Below, piece after piece: positions 42,528 to 57,301 of a stretch of 64,000 bases of DNA (position 1 is the stretch's first letter; each line of letters begins with the position of its first letter). The notes under the pieces are model-generated. The model was not told the DNA's origin. It ran no database searches and saw only the letters and a program-made list of their open reading frames with translations. Origin of the DNA: Gemmatimonadales bacterium (GTDB lineage Bacteria > Gemmatimonadota > Gemmatimonadetes > Gemmatimonadales > GWC2-71-9); assembly GCA_041615815.1 (NCBI GenBank), contig JBFJCP010000018.1, forward strand, positions 31,350 through 95,349, written 5' to 3'. The position numbers and the translations under genes are program-made.

Positions 42528-44969
42528 TTACGGAGTACCTGACGGCTCGGCCGCGCCTCGAATGGCATCCTTGAGCAACCGGTTCATGAGCTCGGTATGC
42601 TCATCGGTCGTGAGTCTACCCGGCGTGGCGATGGCAGCCCACAGCGCATCGTTGGTCATCTCACGGTGGCACCCCATGCAGAGACCAGTGCGCTGGAGTC
42701 GGTCACGTTCTTCGCGATTGAGTGCGCGGGACAACGGCCAGTGCGTGCCCACAGTCTGTACCTGGTTCCCGGTGCTGTCTACGATCGTGGACCAGTCGAA
42801 CGTGAGATCCGGGATCGCCTCGATTTGGATCTGATAACGCTTCGGAATGACCGCGCCAGTTCGTGCGTCGATCAGATCTTCGACGATGGGCTGTGCATAG
42901 CGAGCCTGGAATACTCCACCGGAGATGCCGTAGCCGAGGGCCTTCGGATTGTTGTGGCAACTTTCACACGTGCGCGCCTGTCGCTGGGCCGAGTGCGGCT
43001 GGACCGGAGCCATGTCGAGACCGAGCGGGACGTGTTCCTGTCCGGCGGCAACGGCTTCGTCAGGGGACCGGGCGATGGTATTGTGCGTGAGCGTTTCGCC
43101 CTTTCGGTCGATGACGGTGAACAATACCTGACACCCTGGCATCAGCGGCGTCACACGGCCCTCTCCGTTGATCCCCAGGACCGGCTCCTCCCACCGCAGG
43201 TAGGAGCGGGTCTCGAACACCTTCCCGGGGCTCGATATCCCCGGAGTGCCCAAGTGGGATTCCGCCGTCTGGCCATCAGAAGTCCGTGAGGTCCCGGACG
43301 CGACCCAGTCGATGTCGCTCAACGGTGCACCGCTGTCGTCGAGTCCGTAGTTGACTTGCACATGACATCCATAGCACTGGGGTACCCACGAGGCGTGACA
43401 AGCGTAGCACTCCAAGCGCTCGGCATGTGCCTGGACCCGCGCCATCGCGACTTCCGCATTGGGGCTGCTCCAGCTGTTCTCCGCCGCGATGGTCTTGAGC
43501 AACGGAACCAGGAAATCCGTCCCTGTCGCGGAGTGTAGGACCACGCTCTCGCCGCGCTTTACCACGTTCCCGAAGGGGTTGCCCCGTGCGGTCAGGAGAT
43601 AGCCATCACCAGCGTCGTAGAGTGTGCCAAACCCTGCCTCGATCCCGGCACGCTCGGCCAATCCACGCGGCGCCGCGGACAATTCCCGCGCAAACTCCTC
43701 ACCAAAGCCAAGGGCAAGCTCCCACGGGTACAGCTCAGGCGTCCCGTGGCAGTCGGCGCACTCGATCTCGACCTGCGCGAGGGTAGTGCCGAAGATATTG
43801 CCATCGCCGTGCATCTCGATGCTCGTGTGACAGTCCTGGCACAACATTCCGCCTTGGGGATTCTCCGGTCGGCTCTGTTGCTGATGATGGAGGTCGTCTG
43901 AGATGAATAGGTACTTCTTGGTGTGCAGCGGAGGCTGTGTGCCGCCGGTTCGGGTGAACGGGCTGCCGTAAGGGAACTCCATGAGCCCTTGGTAGGTGAC
44001 ACCGATCCGCTTCCCGCGGTTGTGGCAGGAATTGCAGGATTCCACGGGGATGCCTCCGCCCGCCTCCCGAGTTCCGATGATGCGGTGCGTCAGCATGTGG
44101 CCCTGCTCGTCCGGATCGATGGTTGGATCACCGCCCTCGTAATAGCCTTCGTTCCCATACGGGACGTGACAGGCCGAGCATCCCATGCCCCGATAGTCAC
44201 CGCGTGCTTCCCGGCCGCGCACCCCCACGTGGCAGCGCTGGCACTGCTGTCGCTGGTAGGTGTATCCGGCCAGCTTCGGATCCGCTTCGATCTCCTCGAC
44301 GGACGGGTTGGGTATCTGTGTCAGTGATGTGGGGAATTGCTTGGGGAATGCCTCGATCATCGCAGCCATGTACTGCTTGTACGCGGGTGTGCCGGCCACG
44401 GGCACCCGACCATCGGTATCGTCCACCGCGTAGTTGCCCCACGGAACGTTGTAGTCGCGCACCTCGTCGATCCCCCAAGTGTGAAGATTGCCCTGAATCT
44501 TCCCGGCTTCGGTGGCCATCAGGGCTCGTTCCATACGGTACGCGTATCCCGGGTGACATTGTCCGCACGTCCGATCCGCCACCCAAATGCTTCCGGGATC
44601 GCGGTAGAACTCGGTTGGGCCGTTGGGTGGCATGTTGGCAGGTGCACCCGTGTGCGCCGCCTCTGCGGCGGTGGCCGACGGATCGCCACCGTGACACACC
44701 ACGCAGCCCTCGGGATCGCCGTAGGCCAGGCCCATGCCACGGATGGTGGCCAACATGGCGCTCCCGTCTTCGCGGATGGGTTCGATGCCCTCATGGCAAC
44801 TCAAGCAGCCCAGCGCCTGCGCCCGTTCTGCGGTCGTACTTACGACGTCTCGACGTACTTCGGCGCCGGCCTGGGCCTGCCGGCACGCCGTGGAGGAGCT
44901 GCTGAGGCCCGCGGCAACAAGAGCAGCAGCGAGGGGGGATGCGTACTTCATGAGATTCGATTTGCTCAT
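42528..44969 (-). CDS. Dodecahaem c-type cytochrome lipoprotein
   Basis: Twelve CxxCH motifs (CLSCH, CVVCH, CGQCH, CQRCH, CSACH, CNSCH, CQDCH, CADCH, CYACH, CYGCH, CESCH, CMGCH); lipobox-like STAC. Confidence 0.93.
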   Translation of the reverse strand: MSKSNLMKYASPLAAALVAAGLSSSSTACRQAQAGAEVRRDVVSTTAERAQALGCLSCHEGIEPIREDGSAMLATIRGMGLAYGDPEGCVVCHGGDPSATAAEAAHTGAPANMPPNGPTEFYRDPGSIWVADRTCGQCHPGYAYRMERALMATEAGKIQGNLHTWGIDEVRDYNVPWGNYAVDDTDGRVPVAGTPAYKQYMAAMIEAFPKQFPTSLTQIPNPSVEEIEADPKLAGYTYQRQQCQRCHVGVRGREARGDYRGMGCSACHVPYGNEGYYEGGDPTIDPDEQGHMLTHRIIGTREAGGGIPVESCNSCHNRGKRIGVTYQGLMEFPYGSPFTRTGGTQPPLHTKKYLFISDDLHHQQQSRPENPQGGMLCQDCHTSIEMHGDGNIFGTTLAQVEIECADCHGTPELYPWELALGFGEEFARELSAAPRGLAERAGIEAGFGTLYDAGDGYLLTARGNPFGNVVKRGESVVLHSATGTDFLVPLLKTIAAENSWSSPNAEVAMARVQAHAERLECYACHASWVPQCYGCHVQVNYGLDDSGAPLSDIDWVASGTSRTSDGQTAESHLGTPGISSPGKVFETRSYLRWEEPVLGINGEGRVTPLMPGCQVLFTVIDRKGETLTHNTIARSPDEAVAAGQEHVPLGLDMAPVQPHSAQRQARTCESCHNNPKALGYGISGGVFQARYAQPIVEDLIDARTGAVIPKRYQIQIEAIPDLTFDWSTIVDSTGNQVQTVGTHWPLSRALNREERDRLQRTGLCMGCHREMTNDALWAAIATPGRLTTDEHTELMNRLLKDAIRGAAEPSGTP

Positions 44970-45027
44970 GGGAGCACCCTTCGTCTGCAGAGTTCGACCC
45001 GAATCGAAGTGATCATAAGCGATCGAT

Positions 45028-46149
45028 CTAAAAGCTCATGTTGAGATCCAACCGAAAGCGTTTCTGTAAGGTGTCGACGCGGGGGTCGTCAGTTGCACTC
45101 CACAGCGTCCAGAGATTGACAACTGCCCGGGGCCAGACCTGGACCGTCACTCCCGCAACGTGCCCACGGAAGTTGGTGCCGTTCAAGAAGTCATCGTGCA
45201 CGAACGGCGCGAACGCCGCCTCTTGGCCCAGCTGCTGATACTGGTAGAACACGCGCCAATCCCGTACTTCCCCCAGCTTGCCGACCTGAACACCAAGGGC
45301 AAACCCATCGTCGTCGAAGCCATCGGCGGCCGAGGTGTTCTTGATGAACTGTCCACTCACCAATACAGGGAATCTCGCATCGTATCGAAGCGAGGCGAAC
45401 GCTTGGACGATGTCGAAGTCGGACAAAAACAGGGTGTCACCCGCGGCGTCGATCGCCAAAGCGTTGCCCTGGTTCTCCTGCGCAAGAAGTGCAGATCCTC
45501 CGGCATCGGGCCGCTCGAATCCGTAGAATCCCAGTGCGACGGCCCCGCGCACGGGGCCCGAGATGACGTTCGACCAGTGAGCCTGACCGGCGGTGAGACC
45601 CACGCTCTTACCCGGTGATCGCTGCAGGAGGAGATACTGAGCACCCACGACCCTGAATCCCCCGATGGGTCCCAGGACCACCGCGAGCCCTTCCGGCTGA
45701 ATGTCGGCGTCCCAAACCAACTCACTGTAGATCGCAGCGTTGACAAGAGGGTTTCCGAACTTGCCGGCATACACGGTGACGGGCTGCTCGAGGGGCGGCT
45801 GCCACCGCAGGAAAGCTCGATCGAGGCGGAATTCGTAGGTCTTGAACCCATTCCCCAGGGTTTGGTGTGGCGAATTGGGGTCGCGTAGGTTGGAGCCCGT
45901 GGCCATGCGTGCCCCGACGACGAGCTGGGACGTGAGGCGGGCCTCCACACCCGCTCGGAATCGGATGCGTGGGCGAGCTCTATCTTCGCTCCCCGTCCGA
46001 TCGATATCCCACTCCCCACGAAGACGGAGGTCCCCGAAGAGTCGGATTCGCTGCGCTGGCTCGGGCTGTTGAGCGAGTGTTGGCTGAGCTGAACAGAAAA
46101 GCAGGGTCGCAAGGACGCCCACCAAATACCGCGGGAGGTGAGAGGCCAC
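45028..46149 (-). CDS. Putative outer-membrane beta-barrel porin
   Basis: Signal peptide; GDLRLRGE, R.RIRFR, LVWDADIQPEG, TN.RGH; alternating amphipathic strands; C-terminal Phe (RLDLNMSF). Confidence 0.85.
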   Translation of the reverse strand: MASHLPRYLVGVLATLLFCSAQPTLAQQPEPAQRIRLFGDLRLRGEWDIDRTGSEDRARPRIRFRAGVEARLTSQLVVGARMATGSNLRDPNSPHQTLGNGFKTYEFRLDRAFLRWQPPLEQPVTVYAGKFGNPLVNAAIYSELVWDADIQPEGLAVVLGPIGGFRVVGAQYLLLQRSPGKSVGLTAGQAHWSNVISGPVRGAVALGFYGFERPDAGGSALLAQENQGNALAIDAAGDTLFLSDFDIVQAFASLRYDARFPVLVSGQFIKNTSAADGFDDDGFALGVQVGKLGEVRDWRVFYQYQQLGQEAAFAPFVHDDFLNGTNFRGHVAGVTVQVWPRAVVNLWTLWSATDDPRVDTLQKRFRLDLNMSF

Positions 46150-46170
46150 GGTTCCTCCGACGTTGGCACA

Positions 46171-46233
46171 GGGTAATGGAGTTACCCCACTATCCGCGCG
46201 GCTGCCTAAACTCGTCGTGAAGATGTCGTTAAG
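46171..46233 (-). promoter_or_regulatory. 11-bp direct repeats plus an inverted repeat upstream of the porin
   Basis: Minus strand CTTAACGACAT CTTCACGACGA GTTTAGGCAGC (46233-46201); GGGTAA-N5-TTACCC at 46171-46187. Confidence 0.45.
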
Positions 46234-46263
46234 TGCCGGGCTTCCAATGTCAACGGAAAGCGA

Positions 46264-49357: not shown

Positions 49358-50542
49358 GTGGCTTACCAGAGCGGACGGCACTTTCTGCAGATTCCCGGGC
49401 CCACGAACGTCCCGGACCGTGTGCTCCGCGCGATGGATCGCGCGACCATCGATCACCGTGGACCGACCTTCGCCGAAATCACGCACGACGTGTTGCGCGG
49501 CCTCCAAACGGTATTTCAGACTACTGGTGACGTTGTTGTGTTTCCCGCCTCTGGCACCGGGGGGTGGGAAGCGGCGCTTGTGAACACGCTGTCGCCGGGA
49601 GACCGGGTCCTGATGTTCGATTGTGGCATATTTGCGGGAAATTGGTGTCGGGTGGCCGAGCGTCTCGGCCTCGACGTCGAAATCTGCCCGGGTGACTGGC
49701 GGCGCGGTGTCGATCCCAAGATAGTGGGCGAGTGTCTTGTGGCGGATCGTGATCACCGATACCGCGCGGTGGCCATGGTGCACAATGAGACCTCGACCGG
49801 GGTCACCTCGCCGGTTGCGGCCGTTCGTGAGGTGATGGATCAAGCGGGGCACCCTGCGCTCCTCTTGGTAGACGCGGTATCATCGTTGGCCTCCATAGAC
49901 TACCGGCACGACGAATGGAACGTGGACGTGACGGTGGCCAGCTCGCAAAAAGGATTGATGCTCCCGCCGGGGCTGAGCTTCAATGCGGTAAGCGGTCGTG
50001 CGCTGCAAATGAGCAACGATGCCAAACTCGCACGATCGTACTGGCGCTGGGATGACATGCGCACGTTCAACCGCGATGGATTCTTTCCCTATACGCCGGC
50101 GACAAACCTGCTCTTTGGATTGCAGGAGGCGCTGACGATGCTTCAGGAAGAAGGCCTGAGCCGAGTGTTCGCACGTCACCAGCGGCTTGCGGAGGCTACG
50201 AGACGGGCGGTGACGGCCTGGGGGCTCGAGCACTATTGCGTGGAACAAGCGAATCGAAGCAACACGGTGACGACGGTACGCACCCCGGACGGAGTCGATG
50301 CCGACGGCCTCAGGCAGACCATCCGCGAGTGCTTCGATATGTCCTTGGGCGGCGGACTGGGTAAGCTCAAAGGCCACGTCTTTCGGATCGGACACCTGGG
50401 GGACTTCAACGAGTTGATGCTCGCCGGCACGCTCAGTGGGATCGAAATGGGTCTCGACGTGGCGGGCGTTCCTCACACCCCAGGTGGCGTCCGGGCTGCG
50501 TTGGAGTATCTGGCCCAAAACGCCCGGGTGGAGACGGCGTGA
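49358..50542 (+). CDS. Serine/alanine-glyoxylate aminotransferase-like class V enzyme
   Basis: GRHFLQIPGPTNVPDRVL, SGTGGWEAAL, HNETSTG, SQKGLMLPPG, FRIGHLG. Confidence 0.92.
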   Translation: MAYQSGRHFLQIPGPTNVPDRVLRAMDRATIDHRGPTFAEITHDVLRGLQTVFQTTGDVVVFPASGTGGWEAALVNTLSPGDRVLMFDCGIFAGNWCRVAERLGLDVEICPGDWRRGVDPKIVGECLVADRDHRYRAVAMVHNETSTGVTSPVAAVREVMDQAGHPALLLVDAVSSLASIDYRHDEWNVDVTVASSQKGLMLPPGLSFNAVSGRALQMSNDAKLARSYWRWDDMRTFNRDGFFPYTPATNLLFGLQEALTMLQEEGLSRVFARHQRLAEATRRAVTAWGLEHYCVEQANRSNTVTTVRTPDGVDADGLRQTIRECFDMSLGGGLGKLKGHVFRIGHLGDFNELMLAGTLSGIEMGLDVAGVPHTPGGVRAALEYLAQNARVETA

Positions 50543-51522
50543 ATCGGTTGCGCGTGGCCTACGTGGTCACCGCGACCGCGGTCGTTCTGGGCTGCGGTGG
50601 TGGCGGAGGGCCGCTGGAGCTCAAGTTCGGCCACGTCGGGGCGCCCGGTTCGCTCTTCGCCCTCTCGGCGGAGGAGTTTGCCCGACGAGCCAACGAGCGT
50701 CTCGGGGGTCAGGCCATCGTCGTCGTGTTCGGGTCCAGCCAGCTCGGCGGCGACGAAGTGATGCTGCAGAAGCTGAAGCTCGGCACCCTGCACTTCGCAC
50801 TTCCGTCGACGATCATGTCGTCCACGGTGGACGAATTCGGGCTTTTCGAGATGCCGTACCTGGTGGATGACCGAGAGCACATGCAGCGCATTACCGAAGC
50901 CGTGGTGTGGCCGGAGCTCGTCCCACTGGCGGAGGCGCAGGGATACGGCATTCTGGCGGTATGGGAAAACGGGTTCCGCCACGTCACCAACAACGTACGA
51001 CCCATCGTCGTCCCCAACGACCTGCGTGGCGTCAAGCTGCGCACCCCCCGCGGCCGCTGGCGCGTCAGGATGTTCCAGTCGTACGGGGCCAATCCCACCC
51101 CCATGCCGTTGTCCGAAGTCTTCATCGCCCTCCAGACGGGCGTGATGGATGGGCAGGAGAATCCATTCGCCCAAATCTATACGTCCAAGCTGCACGAGGT
51201 GCAGCGATATCTCTCCCTCACGGGGCACGTCTACACCCCGGCATTCGTGACGGTGGGACGCGACGCGTGGCAACGGATCCCCATCGACCTCCGCACCGTC
51301 CTCGAGACAACGGCCCGCGAGACAGAGGCCTTTGTCTACGAGACCGCGGGCCGAATGGACGCGGCGTTGCTCGACTCGCTATCGGTGGCGGGGCTCGAGG
51401 TCAACGAGACCGATCGCGCCCGGTTCGTCCAAGCCAGCGGTTCCATCTACCGCGAGTTCGCGGAGGCCGTGCCGACCGGGCGCGCACTCGTCGAGCGTGC
51501 CGTGGCCCTCAGGGCTCCGTGA
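50539..51522 (+). CDS. dctP: TRAP transporter substrate-binding protein (lipoprotein)
   Basis: WENGFRH, KLRTP, ALQTGVMDGQENP, LTGHVY; lipobox VLGC. Confidence 0.93.
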   Translation: MNRLRVAYVVTATAVVLGCGGGGGPLELKFGHVGAPGSLFALSAEEFARRANERLGGQAIVVVFGSSQLGGDEVMLQKLKLGTLHFALPSTIMSSTVDEFGLFEMPYLVDDREHMQRITEAVVWPELVPLAEAQGYGILAVWENGFRHVTNNVRPIVVPNDLRGVKLRTPRGRWRVRMFQSYGANPTPMPLSEVFIALQTGVMDGQENPFAQIYTSKLHEVQRYLSLTGHVYTPAFVTVGRDAWQRIPIDLRTVLETTARETEAFVYETAGRMDAALLDSLSVAGLEVNETDRARFVQASGSIYREFAEAVPTGRALVERAVALRAP

Positions 51523-51529
51523 CGGACGG

Positions 51530-52003
51530 TTGAGTCCCGCAGGGTTCCGGCGCGGTCTCGAGCGCCTGCTCGAGGCCATCGTGATCGTCCTGTTGGCAGG
51601 GTTGACCACCCTCGTGGTGGTTGCCGTGGCCTTTCGAAAGGGCGGTGCCGCACTCGCATGGTATGATGAAATGGCATCGGTCCTGCTCGCGTGGGTCACG
51701 TACTACGGGGCCTGTCTAGCGGCACTGAACCAGGCGCACATCGGTTTTCCCACGCTAGTAGAAGCGACCCCACCTGCGTTCCGGTTGCCGTTGCTGGTGA
51801 TCCGAGAGGTGTTTGTGGTGGGGTTTTTTGTGATCGTCGCGTACGCCGGATGGCGAGTGCAGGGGGTGCTTGCGGGGACGTCGCTCGTCACGTTGGCGTG
51901 GGTGCCGCTGCAGGTGACGCAATCGGTGATCCCCATCGGGGCGGTATTGTTCATCGTGGCGGAGCTGGTGGGATTGGGTGATCGCTTGCCGGTGCGGCAG
52001 TGA
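51530..52003 (+). CDS. dctQ: TRAP transporter small permease
   Basis: W.DE...W..YYGA......HI; four TM segments; probable TTG start at 51530. Confidence 0.88.
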   Translation: MSPAGFRRGLERLLEAIVIVLLAGLTTLVVVAVAFRKGGAALAWYDEMASVLLAWVTYYGACLAALNQAHIGFPTLVEATPPAFRLPLLVIREVFVVGFFVIVAYAGWRVQGVLAGTSLVTLAWVPLQVTQSVIPIGAVLFIVAELVGLGDRLPVRQ

Positions 52004-53283
52004 CCCTCGGGCTCTTGTTCCTGGGGCTCGTGGCCCTCGTTCTGATCGACGTCCCCATCGCGGTGGGGCTCGGCATCGTCGCCATCGTTGCCATGCTCGT
52101 GACCACCGGGCCGGCGTCGCTTCCCAACGTGGGGCTCACCATGTTCACGGGCGCCACGACCTTCCCGCTGATCGCGATTCCGCTGTTCATTCTCGCCGGC
52201 GCCATCATGAACACGTCTGGGATCTCACGCCGACTGGTGGCACTTGCCACGTCGTTGTTCGGATTCATCCGGGGTGGGTTGTCGATGGTGACCATCGGCG
52301 CGTCCATGTTCTTCGCCGAGATCTCCGGCTCGGCGGTGGCGGACGTCGCGGCGTTGGGCTCGATTCTGATTCCCTCCATGAAAGAGCGTGGGTATAGCTC
52401 CGCGTTCGCGGCAGCCGTCACGTCTTCATCTGCGACGCTCGCGGTGATCATCCCCCCTTCGATTCCCATGATCATCTATGGGGTCATGGCCAACAGCTCC
52501 ATCGTCGAGCTCTTCGTTGCCGGCATCATCCCGGGGGTGCTCGGCGGTCTCCTCATGATGGGTGTGGCGTACGTCCTGGCTCTTCGCTACGACTTCCCGA
52601 TCGAAGAGATGTTCGCGCTCCGTCGCGTCTGGATCACCTTCAAGCAGGCGGGGTGGGCGTTGCTCCTTCCGGTGATCATCCTCGGAGGGATCTTTACGGG
52701 GTGGGTGACGGCCACCGAGGGCGCGGGACTCGCCGTGCTGGCGGCGCTGGTCATTGGGGGAGCCATCTATCGGGAGCTGTCCTGGCGTCATCTCCGTCGA
52801 GCCCTGGTGGATGCAGGCGTCCAGACGGCGGTGGTCATGCTGCTGGTGGCGACATCGGCGCTGCTGGGCGAATATCTCACGGAGATTCGGTTGCCTCAAC
52901 GCGTCGCTGCCGGAATCATCGGTTTCACTCAAAGTCCGCTCGCGATCCTCGCCCTGTTGAACGTGTTCTTTCTGGTCATTGGGCTGTTTCTCCATTCCGC
53001 GGCGGCTATCATCTTGGTGGTTCCCATCGTGATGCCTCTGGTGCATGCCGCCGGCATCGATCCGGTGCATTTCGGGCTGGTGGTGACCCTGAATCTCGGC
53101 ATTGGGCAGCAGACGCCCCCAGTGGCGAGCGTGTTGGTCACGGCGTGTTCGGTGGCCAAGGCGGATATCTGGGAGGTGAGCAAGGTCAACGTCGCGTTCG
53201 TCGGGGTCCTGTTGGCCGTACTGCTCTTGGTGACCTATGTGCCGGTAGTACCGCTGAGCCTTGTCCATCTGTTCTATCGATGA
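52000..53283 (+). CDS. dctM: TRAP transporter large permease
   Basis: AIPLFILAG, SGSAVAD, IIPPSIP, TATE, GIDPVHFG, TPPV. Confidence 0.95.
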   Translation: MTLGLLFLGLVALVLIDVPIAVGLGIVAIVAMLVTTGPASLPNVGLTMFTGATTFPLIAIPLFILAGAIMNTSGISRRLVALATSLFGFIRGGLSMVTIGASMFFAEISGSAVADVAALGSILIPSMKERGYSSAFAAAVTSSSATLAVIIPPSIPMIIYGVMANSSIVELFVAGIIPGVLGGLLMMGVAYVLALRYDFPIEEMFALRRVWITFKQAGWALLLPVIILGGIFTGWVTATEGAGLAVLAALVIGGAIYRELSWRHLRRALVDAGVQTAVVMLLVATSALLGEYLTEIRLPQRVAAGIIGFTQSPLAILALLNVFFLVIGLFLHSAAAIILVVPIVMPLVHAAGIDPVHFGLVVTLNLGIGQQTPPVASVLVTACSVAKADIWEVSKVNVAFVGVLLAVLLLVTYVPVVPLSLVHLFYR

Positions 53284-53301
53284 GATCCGGGGGGTGCGTC
53301 C

Positions 53302-54078
53302 GTGCGTGATCCTGTCTTGACGGAGCGGGACGGTTCGATCGTGACGGTGGTGCTCAACCATCCCGAGCGGATGAATGCGCTCGATCTTACGGCGTGGAAG
53401 GCGTTGGCCCGCACGTTTGCCACGCTGGACGCCGAGGATCGCGTACGGTGTATCGTGGTGCGCGGGGCGGGTGATCGAGCGTTTGCCGCCGGAGCCGACA
53501 TCGCCGCGTTCGAGACCGAGCGCACCGCCACGAACGCTCGTGCATACGGGGAAGCGGAGATGGGGGGGATTCTCGGCGTCGCGCGATCCCGACACCCAAC
53601 GGTCGCACTCATTCAAGGAGCCTGTGTGGGTGGCGGGCTCGAGATTGCCTGCGCCTGTGACATCCGCATTTGCGGAACGTCCAGTCGGTTTGGCGCTCCC
53701 ATCAACAGGCTGGGCCTCACCATGGCGTACGATGAGCTTCAATTCTTCATTGGCGCCGTTGGTCGAAAGGCTGCCTTGGAGATCTTGCTGGAAGGTTCGG
53801 TGTTCGGTGCGGAACGCGCTCTTGCGCTCGGGTTGGTGAGTCGGGTAGTTGGCGATGCCGACGTCGCGGATGAGGCCTACGCGACTGCTCACCGCATCGC
53901 GGAGGGCGCGCCCTTGGTCAATCGGTGGCATAAACAGTTCGCGCGCCGCCTCATGGACCCAGCACCGCTGAGTGACGACGAGGTCGCGGAGGGGTATGCA
54001 GCCTTTCGCACCGCGGACTATCGAACCGGCTATCGCGCATTCCTCGAGAAGCGCAAACCGGAGTTCGAGGGCCGCTAG
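53302..54078 (+). CDS. Enoyl-CoA hydratase/isomerase (crotonase) family protein
   Basis: NAL, AFAAGADI, G.CVGGGLEIA..CDIR, AFLEKRKP.F.G. Confidence 0.92.
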   Translation: MRDPVLTERDGSIVTVVLNHPERMNALDLTAWKALARTFATLDAEDRVRCIVVRGAGDRAFAAGADIAAFETERTATNARAYGEAEMGGILGVARSRHPTVALIQGACVGGGLEIACACDIRICGTSSRFGAPINRLGLTMAYDELQFFIGAVGRKAALEILLEGSVFGAERALALGLVSRVVGDADVADEAYATAHRIAEGAPLVNRWHKQFARRLMDPAPLSDDEVAEGYAAFRTADYRTGYRAFLEKRKPEFEGR

Positions 54079-55311
54079 GTGGGGCCGCTTCAAGGACTCA
54101 AGGTCATTGAGCTCGGACGCATCATGGCGGGGCCGGTGTGTGGTCTCATGCTCGCCGACCTCGGGGCCGAGGTCGTCAAAGTCGAATCCCTGCCGCACGG
54201 CGATCCATCGCGGCGGTTTCTCCCTCCCGCGCTACGTGGGGAGTCGGCGGCGTTCATGATCATGAATCGCAACAAACGCGGCATCGCGGTCGATCTGAAG
54301 TCATCGGGTGGCCGACGAACCGTGCGCCGGCTCTTGCTGAAGGCGGACGTGGTGGTGGAAAACTTCCTCAAGGGCACCATGGAGAGATTGGGGCTCGGAT
54401 TCGAGGAGCTCCAAACGGAGAACCCCGGGCTCATCTCGTGCGAGATCTCGGGATTCGGCCGTACCGGGCCGGACGCGGATCGCGGCGGGTTCGACCTGAC
54501 GGCCCAGGGCTACAGCGGAATCATGAGCGTGACCGGCGAGGGCCCAGAGCGGCCACCCGTCAAGTCCGGCGTGCCGCTCACCGACATCACGGCAGGAATT
54601 CTCGGCGCATTGGGGGTGGTATCCGCCTACGTGCATCGCCTGAAGACGGGCCGCGGGCAGCGCGTCGATACCTCGCTCTTCGAAGCCGGCATCACCCACA
54701 CCTATTGGCAGTCCGCCATCGCCCTGGCTACCGGCGTGTCGCCTGGCCCAATGGGGTCGGCGCATCCGCTGAGCGCACCGTACGAAGCGTTCGAGACGGC
54801 GGACGGTTGGATCAATCTGGGGGCGTCCAGTCAGTCCACGTGGGAGCGGCTCCCCGCAGTGCTGGAACTGCCGGAGCTCCTCGACGATCCACGATTTCGT
54901 GAAAACGCGGATCGGATGGCCAATCGTGCAGCGCTCGCATCGCTGCTCGCGGCCCGGTTTCGGAAGCGGACCACCCGCGACTGGTTGGAGCGACTCGACG
55001 CGGCGAGGATACCCGCGGGACCCGTGGCGAGCATTGGAGAGATGCTGCGTCATCCGCAGACCGTCGCTCGAGCGATGGTCATGCAAGTGGAGCACCCGCG
55101 TGGGGGGCAGGTCGAGACAATTGGGTGTCCGATCAAGCTGGATGGGAGCCAACCTCACACTGGGCGTGGTGCACCGCTGTTGGGTGAACACACCGAAGAG
55201 GTCCTGCGGGAGTACGGCTTTCGAGAGGAAGAAGTTCGGGAGCTCATGGCCGCGGGCGTGGTGCAGGCTCGTGTCGAGCAAATAACGAAGAGAGAAGGGG
55301 GATCGCGATGA
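54079..55311 (+). CDS. CaiB/BaiF family III CoA-transferase
   Basis: GPLQGLKVIEL, LADLGAEVVKVE, NRNKR, GFD, catalytic-region DITAG, APLLGEHT. Confidence 0.93.
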   Translation: MGPLQGLKVIELGRIMAGPVCGLMLADLGAEVVKVESLPHGDPSRRFLPPALRGESAAFMIMNRNKRGIAVDLKSSGGRRTVRRLLLKADVVVENFLKGTMERLGLGFEELQTENPGLISCEISGFGRTGPDADRGGFDLTAQGYSGIMSVTGEGPERPPVKSGVPLTDITAGILGALGVVSAYVHRLKTGRGQRVDTSLFEAGITHTYWQSAIALATGVSPGPMGSAHPLSAPYEAFETADGWINLGASSQSTWERLPAVLELPELLDDPRFRENADRMANRAALASLLAARFRKRTTRDWLERLDAARIPAGPVASIGEMLRHPQTVARAMVMQVEHPRGGQVETIGCPIKLDGSQPHTGRGAPLLGEHTEEVLREYGFREEEVRELMAAGVVQARVEQITKREGGSR

Positions 55312-56210
55312 CGGTCGTCGTGTTGGCGTTCGCAATATTGTCCGTGCAAGCTCAGACGACATCGATGGCAGAACTCGCCCAGCGGTTAGCGGGAATGACG
55401 GCCGTCGCGGGGTTCGAGCAACAGATGACCGACACGCTCGTGAGACTCCTCCCCGAAGCCCGCACAGATCGAGCGGGAAGCGTGGTGGTGACGCTAGGCC
55501 GCGGGACTCCCAAGCGGCTTGCCGCGTGTCGGCTGGACGAGCCGGGGTTCGTCGTTGGCAACATTCACGACGAGGGATTCCTGACGCTCCGGCGGGTGGG
55601 GAGTTCGCCTTCTCCGTTGTTCGATCAATGGCACGAAGGCCACCGCGTGACCGTGTGGACCCGAACCGGTGCTCGTCCTGGGGTCGTCGCGATTCCGTCA
55701 ACCCACTTGCTTCGCGGCAGAGCCCGCCGATTCGACGACGCGTTCACCGTGGACGATGCCTACGTGGAGCTCGGAACGAAGAGCGCAGCCGACGTGGGTG
55801 CATGGGGCGTGGCTCTCCTGGATCCGGTATCCCTCACCAAGGCGCCGCATCGCTACGGCAACGGACTCATGGCGGCGCCGTGGGCGGCACGGCGGACTGC
55901 CTGCGCGGCACTGGCACATGTCGTCGCATCTCGTCCCCAGGTTCGTGGGACGGTGATTGCTCTGTTCGCGGTCGAGAGCGCCATTCGGCACCGCGGGCTT
56001 TTGACGGCGGGGAATGTTGCGGGTCCGTTTGCCGAAACGCGATTGCTCGAGTACCCAACGCCTAGGGGACTCACCGAGGCGCTCTTTGGAGGCGTGAGCC
56101 TCGACATGCTCGACGCCCGGTATCGCGACACGCCGGTGGAAACGGTGAGTTTCGAGGACGCTGAGCGCCTCGCGGCTGCCATTCGCCGGTGGATGGGAGG
56201 TGGGCAATGA
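55308..56210 (+). CDS. M42 peptidase-like protein lacking metal ligands (probable pseudoenzyme), exported
   Basis: Aligns by eye with the downstream M42 gene, but HMDE>RLDE, DDR>ARR, EE>ES, HSP>DTP. Confidence 0.75.
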   Translation: MTVVVLAFAILSVQAQTTSMAELAQRLAGMTAVAGFEQQMTDTLVRLLPEARTDRAGSVVVTLGRGTPKRLAACRLDEPGFVVGNIHDEGFLTLRRVGSSPSPLFDQWHEGHRVTVWTRTGARPGVVAIPSTHLLRGRARRFDDAFTVDDAYVELGTKSAADVGAWGVALLDPVSLTKAPHRYGNGLMAAPWAARRTACAALAHVVASRPQVRGTVIALFAVESAIRHRGLLTAGNVAGPFAETRLLEYPTPRGLTEALFGGVSLDMLDARYRDTPVETVSFEDAERLAAAIRRWMGGGQ

Positions 56211-57301
56211 GAGACACAATGTTGATACTGGTCATGGCGATGTGCGTTGTACCCCGGGCCGCCTCAAGCCAAGGAGCCGAGCGAATCGAACACGCGGCCG
56301 CGCTGCTTGGTGAGCTCGTGGAGACCTACGGGGTATCCGGTGACGAAGCCCGGGTCCGTGAGGTCATCATGCGGCATATTCCCTCGTGGGCTCGATCGGA
56401 GGTGGACACCGCGGGCAACCTGTGGGTACGAATGGGGCGGGGCGATCCGGTGGTCGTGTTCGTCGCCCACATGGACGAGACGGGCTTTCGCGTTCAATCG
56501 ATCGAGGACGACGGCTTCCTCACCATCGAGCGGCGCGGCGGGTTCTTGCCCTGGCTGTGGGAGGCGACGCCGGCGCTCGTGCACACCCCAGCCGGTCAGG
56601 TTCCCGGCGTGTTCACGCCGAGGGACTCCCTGGAACCGAACCCAACGCGAATGCCGGCTGGTGGATTCCGCGTGGATGTTGGTGCGTCGTCCGCCCGGGA
56701 GGTGGAGACCCTGGGGATCCGAGTGGGTCAGACCGTCACCAATCCCAAACAATTCGTGAGGCTCCACGGGACGCGCGCCACCGCTCGTTCGTTCGACGAC
56801 CGGGTGGGTTCGGCGGCTCAGCTTCTGGCCCTGCAAGGTCTCGATCGATCGAAGCTCACCCACGAAGTCGTGTTTCTCTGGGTGACTCGGGAGGAGATCG
56901 GGTTAGTGGGCGCATCTCGAGCGGCGGCAGCCCTTGGGACTAGGGCAGTGCGCGTGCATGCGGTGGACACGTTCGTATCTGCGGATGGTCCGCACGATCT
57001 CAGAAATTTCGCCGCCCAACCCATTGGACTTGGGCCGGTGGCCCGAGCAGTCGACAATTCGACGGTCACGCCGCCGGCCGTGGTGGACACGCTCCGCATG
57101 CTGGCTGCGCGACACGGGATTCCCCTTCAGGTCGGCACGACGAACGGCGGCAACGATGGGGCCGCCTTTACCGCATGGGGAGTCGTCGACGTCCCCATTG
57201 GCTGGCCGCTTCGGTACTCGCACTCGCCGGTCGAGGTGATCGATCTCGTGGATCTCGTAGCTCTCGGCGATCTGGTCCGGGTGATCGCGGAGGAGTGGTA
57301 G
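56207..57301 (+). CDS. M42 (TET/FrvX-like) aminopeptidase, exported
   Basis: VSGDE, AHMDE, SFDDRVG, REEIG, AVD, GGNDG, YSHSPVE; ATGA overlap with the upstream gene. Confidence 0.9.
   Translation: MRDTMLILVMAMCVVPRAASSQGAERIEHAAALLGELVETYGVSGDEARVREVIMRHIPSWARSEVDTAGNLWVRMGRGDPVVVFVAHMDETGFRVQSIEDDGFLTIERRGGFLPWLWEATPALVHTPAGQVPGVFTPRDSLEPNPTRMPAGGFRVDVGASSAREVETLGIRVGQTVTNPKQFVRLHGTRATARSFDDRVGSAAQLLALQGLDRSKLTHEVVFLWVTREEIGLVGASRAAAALGTRAVRVHAVDTFVSADGPHDLRNFAAQPIGLGPVARAVDNSTVTPPAVVDTLRMLAARHGIPLQVGTTNGGNDGAAFTAWGVVDVPIGWPLRYSHSPVEVIDLVDLVALGDLVRVIAEEW

Follow-up and report, generated by a model that had tools for sequence, protein, structure and literature searches.

A Porin_5 porin and an ExtM-like dodecahaem cytochrome encoded together in a Gemmatimonadales bacterium: a candidate anion channel and Cys-haem oxidoreductase

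We analyzed a pair of genes encoding a porin and a multihaem c-type cytochrome in a Gemmatimonadales genome (assembly GCA_041615815.1). The pair lies in a stretch of 64,000 nucleotides (nt) of contig JBFJCP010000018.1 (positions 31,350 to 95,349), hereafter called the window. The porin open reading frame (ORF; 373 amino acids (aa), GTG start) and the cytochrome ORF (813 aa) have the same orientation and are 58 nt apart. A first-pass annotation of the same DNA had described a barrel gene upstream of a co-oriented lipoprotein gene with 12 CxxCH motifs and a lone cysteine, and the ORFs and motif positions confirm this description. The motif cysteines of the cytochrome are at residues 55, 89, 135, 243, 264, 312, 377, 404, 521, 532, 668, and 764. 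The only other cysteines are Cys29, which fits a relaxed lipobox as it does in the other Gemmatimonadota homologues examined, and Cys613, in the motif MPGCQ. The features of the locus are the following:

45028..46149, minus strand: outer-membrane beta-barrel of the Porin_5 family (PF16930; Pfam, 109.5 bits), 373 aa, with a signal peptide and a C-terminal Phe.
45955..46026, minus strand: arginine ladder of the porin (R42, R44, R57, R59, R61, R63, R65; also R81, R364, R366), from conservation among homologues.
44970..45027, minus strand: 58-nt intergenic spacer with a purine-rich ribosome-binding site, from the sequence.
42528..44969, minus strand: ExtM-like dodecahaem c-type cytochrome, a lipoprotein of 813 aa (12 CxxCH motifs; NF040943, 231 bits).
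44883..44885, minus strand: Cys29, putative lipid-attachment site (relaxed lipobox match).
44007..44018, minus strand: Arg318 and Arg321, after haem 6 (CHNRxxR), putative anion-binding residues of a haem-10 pocket.
43362..43376, minus strand: motif of haem 10, CYGCH (532-536), an often-lost and probably catalytic haem (kept in 45 of 61 diverse relatives).
43206..43208, minus strand: Arg588, putative third arginine of the pocket, particular to this branch (Glu in ExtM).
43131..43133, minus strand: Cys613 (PGCQ), putative distal ligand or catalytic thiol of haem 10, from conservation and covariation.
46150..46263, minus strand: 114-nt upstream region, a possible promoter or operator, with a TTGACA hexamer (46253-46248) and a 6-bp inverted repeat (46171-46187).

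The best curated match of the cytochrome is ExtM (NCBIfam NF040943, E 2e-68), below the 800-bit cut-off of the ExtM equivalog. A representative of ExtM over this cut-off (P0249, 826 bits) is ~30% identical to the cytochrome, with all 12 haems colinear, and hhalign against over-cut-off ExtM gave a probability of 100 over 562 columns. Judged by its sequence, the cytochrome is a member of the ExtM superfamily and not an ExtM equivalog. The resemblance to ExtM-type cytochromes named in the first-pass annotation is therefore sound for the superfamily and the haem order, but does not make the protein an equivalog. Compared with ExtM of Geobacter sulfurreducens (GSU2935, part of Cbc6), the cytochrome shares the 12 colinear haem motifs, the PGCQ cysteine, the CHNRxxR motif, Glu586, the lipoprotein-type N-terminus of the named ExtM members seen, and ~30% identity over ~600 aligned residues. 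It differs in being ~200 residues longer, in having Arg588, His387, and Lys351 where ExtM has Glu, Met, and Arg, and in that no extHJKLNOPQS genes adjoin it. In the accessible text of PMC5877670, ExtM is listed as a predicted 12-haem protein and only ExtI was tested, while GSU2930-2935 have been counted as a putative quinone oxidoreductase, Cbc6 (bioRxiv 10.1101/2021.04.15.440034). ExtM homologues have been reported in cable bacteria, with no porin nearby in the accessible text (PMC11976967), and the accessible text of PMC11492766 does not mention ExtM.

A word-index search returned 2589 homologues of the cytochrome at E<=0.001. The 80 top-ranking genome loci, whose best segments are 64-81% identical, span Gemmatimonadota, Planctomycetota, Bacteroidota, Poribacteria, Nitrospinota, and many Proteobacteria, the latter including Sedimenticola, Thiosymbion, and the Olavius Gamma 3 symbiont, and identity of the cytochrome across five phyla is 67-81%. 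The family is widespread, contrary to the impression that such a system is confined to an unusual lineage. In the host phylum (401 genomes) its distribution is patchy, with a close copy (at least 69% identity) in five genomes, a distant copy in one, and a fragment in one. The family is large and common in sediment sulfur oxidisers and symbionts, yet our literature search (supplements not covered) found no study of this cytochrome subfamily, of the PGCQ cysteine, of ExtM biochemistry, or of Porin_5 function. Sequence searches of the PDB gave no meaningful relative for the cytochrome or the porin. The genome also encodes a second, short lipoprotein-like cytochrome of 363 aa with 8 haems and weak similarity to ExtM (54 bits; G000:C2:107329-108423, L095:5333-6424).

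The weight given to the lone cysteine in the first-pass annotation was justified. All 120 close homologues have Cys613, and the residue covaries with haem 10. It is also present in 114 of 120 ExtM-type proteins, a set that includes named Desulfuromonas acetoxidans and Geotalea members, the remaining six having Ser. Across this set Arg318, Arg321, Glu586, and haem 10 are invariant, and position 588 is Glu in all 120. The covariation was assessed in 61 diverse relatives, i.e., 65 minus four with truncated or frame-disturbed ends (P0136, P0144, P0161, P0256). Haem 10 is the only internal haem often lost outright: haems 1, 2, 4-9, and 11 are each missing in at most one relative, and haem 3 was scored in 50 of 59 and the terminal haem 12 in 39 of 48. 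Haem 10 and the cysteine occur together in 39 relatives and are both absent from 15, with haem 10 only in six and the cysteine only in one (40, 17, 6, and 2, respectively, when all 65 are kept). Outside the motif cysteines, Cys613 is the column most strongly associated with haem 10 (phi 0.74), followed by His536 and Arg318 (0.65) and, lower, by Arg588 (0.48). Arg318 is found in 33 and Arg588 in 24 of the 45 relatives with haem 10, and both are absent from all 16 without it. On the tree, haem 10 changes 10 times, the cysteine 9 times, and the joint state 13 times; nine phylogenetically independent pairs gave ~6 concordant and no opposite cases (median p 0.03). In an analysis of mutual information with average product correction (MI-APC; 289 sequences, effective number Neff 75), C613 was coupled most strongly to C532, C535, R318, R588, H536, and E586. 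The highest-scoring pairs of the whole alignment are artefacts of gaps and termini, and only partners of named residues were used.

For the 12 haems, no more than 10 further columns are mostly His or Met among the diverse relatives, and Cys613 would therefore be the eleventh distal ligand. Met72 and Met151 mark probable His/Met haem centres. We infer that haem 10 is a His/Cys haem with an arginine pocket. As in the His/Cys-haem sulfur enzymes, a conserved cysteine outside the haem motifs is tied to one haem and has arginines nearby. The presumed active-site logic is that of TsdA, SoxAX, and MccSep/ExtKL, with one Cys-ligated haem, nearby arginines, and a chain with probable His/Met centres. 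TsdA has a His/Cys haem with two nearby Arg (PMC6879331). In Geobacter, extKL, just upstream of extM, encode MccSep, a polysulfide reductase that also works at a His/Cys haem (PMC13510729). The cytochrome differs from these enzymes in that no sequence homology to them was found, in having 12 haems instead of 2-5, and in having no second Cys or selenocysteine. One relative (P0238, 549 aa) ends exactly at the residue before the Cys613 position; an in-frame UGA, the selenocysteine codon, would cause such an end, which makes this protein a candidate selenocysteine form. Another (P0443, residues 600-985) is an ExtM-ExtN fusion, the ExtN-like half being a paralogue of the C-terminal region of ExtM without haem 10 and the cysteine. 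This suggests a catalytic/non-catalytic pseudo-dimer in Desulfobacterota.

The same residues could also belong to a protein that does no chemistry. Here the cytochrome would pass on or store electrons in anaerobic respiration without being a catalyst, Cys613 would only set a low potential on a branch haem, partners encoded elsewhere would do the chemistry, and the porin would be a loosely linked solute channel. We regard this as rather unlikely, though it is the most serious competitor. In Geobacter, ExtM clusters with a Rieske protein and a cytochrome b (Cbc6; bioRxiv 10.1101/2021.04.15.440034) and lies beside MccSep, whose electron donor is unidentified in the accessible text of PMC13510729. 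Besides, 16 of the 61 relatives persist without haem 10, as does the ExtN-like half of the fusion, and the scaffold is therefore useful without the Cys/haem-10 site; five further loci have the cytochrome with none of the usual partners described below. On the other hand, the arginines are lost along with the cysteine and haem 10, which fits a substrate pocket better than the tuning of a potential. The identity kept across five phyla is also high for a plain wire, and P0238 ends where a selenocysteine codon would end it (codon not seen).

The second protein of the pair matches only Porin_5 in Pfam (cut-off 22 bits), not Porin O/P (PF07396), and has no NCBIfam match at E<=0.1. It has 29 Arg in 347 mature residues, and a crude alternation scan gave 15 strand-like peaks. 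The ten ladder arginines are each present in 116-120 of 120 aligned porin homologues; in 18 cytochrome-adjacent porins R42 and R366 are nearly invariant and the others fully invariant. From these sequence features, the barrel is probably an anion-selective channel, in line with the earlier view of a small, Arg-rich barrel unlike an MtrB-type sheath. The parallel that had been drawn with the porin of the ext cluster did not hold at the level of the family. ExtI of G. sulfurreducens is also a small barrel (380 vs. 347 mature residues here) encoded with an ExtM-type cytochrome, and was proposed to be an oxyanion channel or an anchor, but it is classed as Porin O/P (PMC5877670); the barrel studied here is set apart from it by its family class. 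The only Porin O/P gene of this genome is just upstream of clade II nosZ (G000:C29:42428-45999, L160). An arginine ladder has been described in OprP (PMC5877670). The barrel resembles OprP/OprO in carrying its ladder on N-terminal strands and in having relatives that adjoin PstS-like proteins, and differs in Pfam family, in giving no PDB match, and in having no pst genes at its locus.

Given the varied contexts in which Porin_5 genes occur, the family seems to be one of general anion channels, recruited here by the cytochrome. A PstS-like binding protein is found beside the relatives of the porin in 12 of 38 metagenome loci (two of these loci seem to be the same sequence). In one of them (L121) the order is the end of a cytochrome gene, two PstS-like proteins, the porin, ResB, and CcsA. 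These PstS-like proteins are divergent and have a C-terminal extension (L121:1-5639, L122, L123, L125, L128-L130, L132, L137, L139, L140, L145). There are no pst permeases among their annotated neighbours, and in L122 two di-haem peroxidase/MauG-like genes follow. Such loci are possibly an undescribed oxyanion capture or sensing module. In a planctomycete that has the cytochrome elsewhere, two Porin_5 genes are in tandem near an Rrf2-family regulator (L114:6244-9106, G066:C18).

To describe the association of the two genes, we compared their positions across genomes. Among the 80 loci, the porin is adjacent to the cytochrome in 17 of 56 evaluable ones, i.e., 13 of 15 non-proteobacterial and only 4 of 41 proteobacterial loci. 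In the host phylum, each of the five close copies of the cytochrome adjoins a porin gene, which is upstream in four cases and downstream in one; only 15 of the 401 genomes of the phylum have a member of the porin family (Fisher p ~1e-6 without G000, the genome studied here; genomes not independent). Pairing is thus more frequent than expected by chance. A profile search of 37 carrier genomes without an adjacent porin found strong copies elsewhere in two planctomycetes and one weak match, and none in the other 34. The gene order of the pair varies, the porin being upstream, downstream, or divergent, and the partner porins, 24-47% identical to this one, form four distant clades. A sister cytochrome (L008) and a genome of the same genus (G001) pair with other porin clades. 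Hence, the two-gene module proposed in the first-pass annotation recurs in the phylum and in most non-proteobacterial loci, but is not obligate, as most proteobacterial copies have no such porin elsewhere in their genomes either. The porin is an optional and swappable partner of the cytochrome, and is therefore unlikely to be a shape-matched sheath. The pair is of the same kind as the ext system of Geobacter, but pared down to two genes and with a different porin family.

In Proteobacteria the usual partners lie 3' of the cytochrome gene: a tetratricopeptide repeat (TPR) protein (58/59) and an exported protein of ~200 aa (52/54). The latter (L075:13094-13711 and 58 other loci) has a DPHxAAPxPNH motif and follows the TPR gene in most proteobacterial and planctomycete loci. 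It has no Pfam or NCBIfam match, and an Atlas search gave unnamed clusters, the nearest named one being DUF4946. Orthologues of both partners were not found in this genome by tblastn, which gave generic TPR matches only and none for the small partner; a single query for the latter in 16 non-proteobacterial genomes gave one weak match. Five more distant loci have the cytochrome without porin, TPR protein, or small partner nearby.

Porin and cytochrome genes side by side recall the MtrAB and OmabcB conduits, and the first-pass annotation had considered extracellular electron transfer by the pair. The two proteins would then form an outer-membrane conduit or docking complex. The tight adjacency in non-proteobacterial loci speaks for this, as does the lipobox, present in 14 of 20 porin-adjacent loci vs. 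3 of 57 others, a contrast confounded with phylum. An anchoring role was left open for ExtI (PMC5877670), and extIJKLM has been listed as a porin-cytochrome conduit, although one not implicated in current production (PMC13194489). However, the barrel is about half the size of those of MtrAB and OmabcB: MtrB has 26 strands (PMC7198977), against the ~15 strand-like segments counted here around a lumen predicted to be lined by conserved Arg, and neither Pfam nor NCBIfam gave a match to the MtrB family. The locus has no second cytochrome, and the one that it has is a lipoprotein in which an active site is probable. Obligate co-occurrence is not seen either, since no Porin_5-family copy was found in 34 of 35 proteobacterial carriers lacking a nearby porin, and the partner porins fall into four clades, at variable gene order, while the cytochromes stayed similar. 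Moreover, the genome has two separate multihaem clusters on contig C20 (about 55000-89000; L092, L093), with 16+18+8 and 8+9+16+9+8 haems. Each has an unannotated gene of ~500 aa, a barrel candidate unrelated to the porin. A Rieske protein and an ExtP-like cytochrome b belong to the second cluster, on another contig than the pair. The C20 clusters are likely the true electron-export systems of this genome, and a conduit formed by the pair is improbable.

At the other extreme, the two genes might be passively linked and share no function. Most cytochrome copies do without the porin, and the cytochrome is not found near 10 of 15 porin copies in the phylum or near 37 of 38 metagenome porin loci. 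Yet, the two genes are neighbours in Gemmatimonadota, Planctomycetota, Bacteroidota, Poribacteria, and some Gammaproteobacteria, in any of three arrangements and with porins from different clades, which makes a passive linkage very hard to believe.

The interpretation that we favour, and to which we give about an even chance, is that the porin is an anion channel and that the cytochrome which it supplies is a lipid-anchored oxidoreductase with a Cys-ligated haem, acting on sulfur or chalcogen compounds under low oxygen. The cytochrome would be a periplasm-facing multihaem oxidoreductase of the ExtM superfamily, presumably anchored in one of the two membranes, with eleven haems forming an electron chain. 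Haem 10, ligated by Cys613 or beside it, would make with Arg318, Arg321, Arg588, and Glu586 an anion-binding active site of the TsdA/SoxA/MccSep type. The most likely reaction would be the formation or cleavage of S-S bonds, the substrate being a sulfur-containing anion (polysulfide, tetrathionate, or thiosulfate); oxyanions of selenium and tellurium are possible side substrates. The porin, probably co-transcribed for supply, would be a separate arginine-lined anion channel passing substrate or product across the outer membrane, and would not sheath the haem chain. In this genome the enzyme would likely work in the direction of reduction under low oxygen, fed in trans.

Data on regulation and sulfur genes in Proteobacteria speak for this proposal. 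FNR-type boxes (TTGAY-N4-RTCAA within 450 nt upstream, found in 1.6% of random 450-nt stretches) precede 28 of 57 proteobacterial loci and point to induction by anoxia or nitric oxide (NO) in Proteobacteria. Among carriers of the cytochrome, dsrA is over cut-off in 31 of 38 proteobacterial and 1 of 23 other genomes. When 401 genomes were sampled evenly from one proteobacterial class, it was present in 10 of 15 carriers (centre excluded) and in 113 of 385 non-carriers, an odds ratio of 4.8 (p 0.004; genomes not independent).

Several observations weigh against the favoured interpretation. No FNR-type box was found in 13 non-proteobacterial loci, this one included, and 22 of 23 non-proteobacterial carriers, this genome among them, lack dsrA. 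Even in the proteobacterial class, the cytochrome is present in only 11 of 124 dsrA genomes, which speaks against a core role in sulfur oxidation, and 5 of 16 carriers have no dsrA; the association could be explained by shared sediment habitat and kinship. Among the families annotated, no sulfur gene recurs beside the cytochrome in the 80 loci. As for the active site, covariation indicates shared function of Cys613 and haem 10, not contact; the six relatives mentioned above keep haem 10 without the cysteine, and the reverse pair test (6 pairs) did not reach significance (median p 0.06). There are also His/Cys haems that serve as low-potential centres and are not catalytic. Seen from the porin, the cytochrome is present at just 1 of 38 metagenome loci (L121), and the channel family is therefore not sulfur-specific. 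Its PstS-like neighbours could mean phosphate, and this genome has no close relative of those proteins.

The same design of import and conversion might thus serve a non-sulfur anion: a selenium or tellurium oxyanion, a nitrogen oxide, or a halogen, arsenic, or phosphorus oxyanion. The PstS-like neighbours point that way, as does the possibility of a five-coordinate haem, given only 11 conserved ligand columns for 12 haems. NO-responsive regulators, too, recognise FNR-type boxes. Loss of ExtI lowers selenite and tellurite reduction (PMC5877670). The selenium/tellurium link suggested in the first-pass annotation goes back to this knockout and to the name of the operon, but the enzyme of the cluster characterised since then is the polysulfide reductase MccSep (ExtKL). 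Indeed, the catalytic His/Cys haems characterised so far act on sulfur compounds (PMC13510729, PMC6879331). In addition, the cytochrome has no CxxCK motif and no match to NrfA or HAO-like proteins beyond weak haem-motif matches, and selenium and tellurium are presumably too scarce in most sediments for so wide a family. We consider a non-sulfur substrate unlikely, if slightly less so than the conduit.

The metabolism of the host gives some indication of direction. In this genome (95.7% complete) we found no dsrA, SoxB, NrfA, or MccSep over cut-off. It encodes elsewhere a clade II NosZ, an alternative complex III (ACIII)-like complex, quinol-linked multihaem proteins, and several rhodaneses. 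For a host with this inventory, in which an N2O reductase is present and Sox, Dsr, and NrfA were not found, the most straightforward interpretation is reductive use under low oxygen. Two tandem molybdopterin proteins (G000:C31:21808-25879, L159) each have an in-frame TGA at the selenocysteine position of formate dehydrogenase, and this genome therefore probably uses selenocysteine.

The surroundings of the pair agree with the earlier remark that no rhodanese or quinol-oxidising gene adjoins it. The co-oriented flanking genes encode an FAD/4Fe-4S oxidoreductase (upstream) and a PD40-amidohydrolase (downstream), neither of which recurs in related loci. G+C is even across the locus, hence there is no sign of recent transfer, and a plasmid search gave no match. 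A scan for terminators found none in the 58-nt spacer, whose fold is not significant (z = +0.4), nor is the hairpin 3' of the cytochrome gene (z -1.4). Upstream of the porin, a sigma-70 scan gave no full site and no FNR box was found; no motif is conserved among nine aligned upstream regions (this locus and eight relatives), the inverted repeat at 46171-46187 not being kept. The sigma-54 pattern was found in 1 of 70 loci, i.e., at background level. The window has no Rfam or tRNA match. Divergent from the FAD/4Fe-4S oxidoreductase gene is an operon-like run (window 49358-57301) encoding a class V aminotransferase, a TRAP transporter (DctPQM), an enoyl-CoA hydratase, a CoA-transferase III, and two M42 peptidases, which resembles an organic-acid catabolic cluster.

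As a minimal system of two genes, probably in a single operon, the pair lends itself to direct tests of a probable catalytic Cys-haem site and of a probable anion channel. As the same residues are conserved in Geobacter ExtM, the result would also tell whether ExtM is an enzyme or a wire, and it would give a first function to a Porin_5 protein. More tentatively, and with the balance tilting against it, the cytochrome may be the founding case of a widespread class of dodecahaem sulfur oxidoreductases with a His/Cys (or selenocysteine) haem and an arginine pocket. These would be induced by anoxia in sediment sulfur oxidisers and symbionts. In heterotrophic Gemmatimonadota, Planctomycetota, and Bacteroidota they would be paired with a Porin_5 channel dedicated to them and would serve in the respiration or recycling of polysulfide or polythionates. 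According to the 2026 MccSep paper (PMC13510729), it is unknown how polysulfide crosses the outer membrane. If the idea is true, the missing outer-membrane route would be supplied, together with a catalytic role for ExtM. A test of the pair would also caution against counting every porin-plus-cytochrome pair as a system for extracellular electron transfer.

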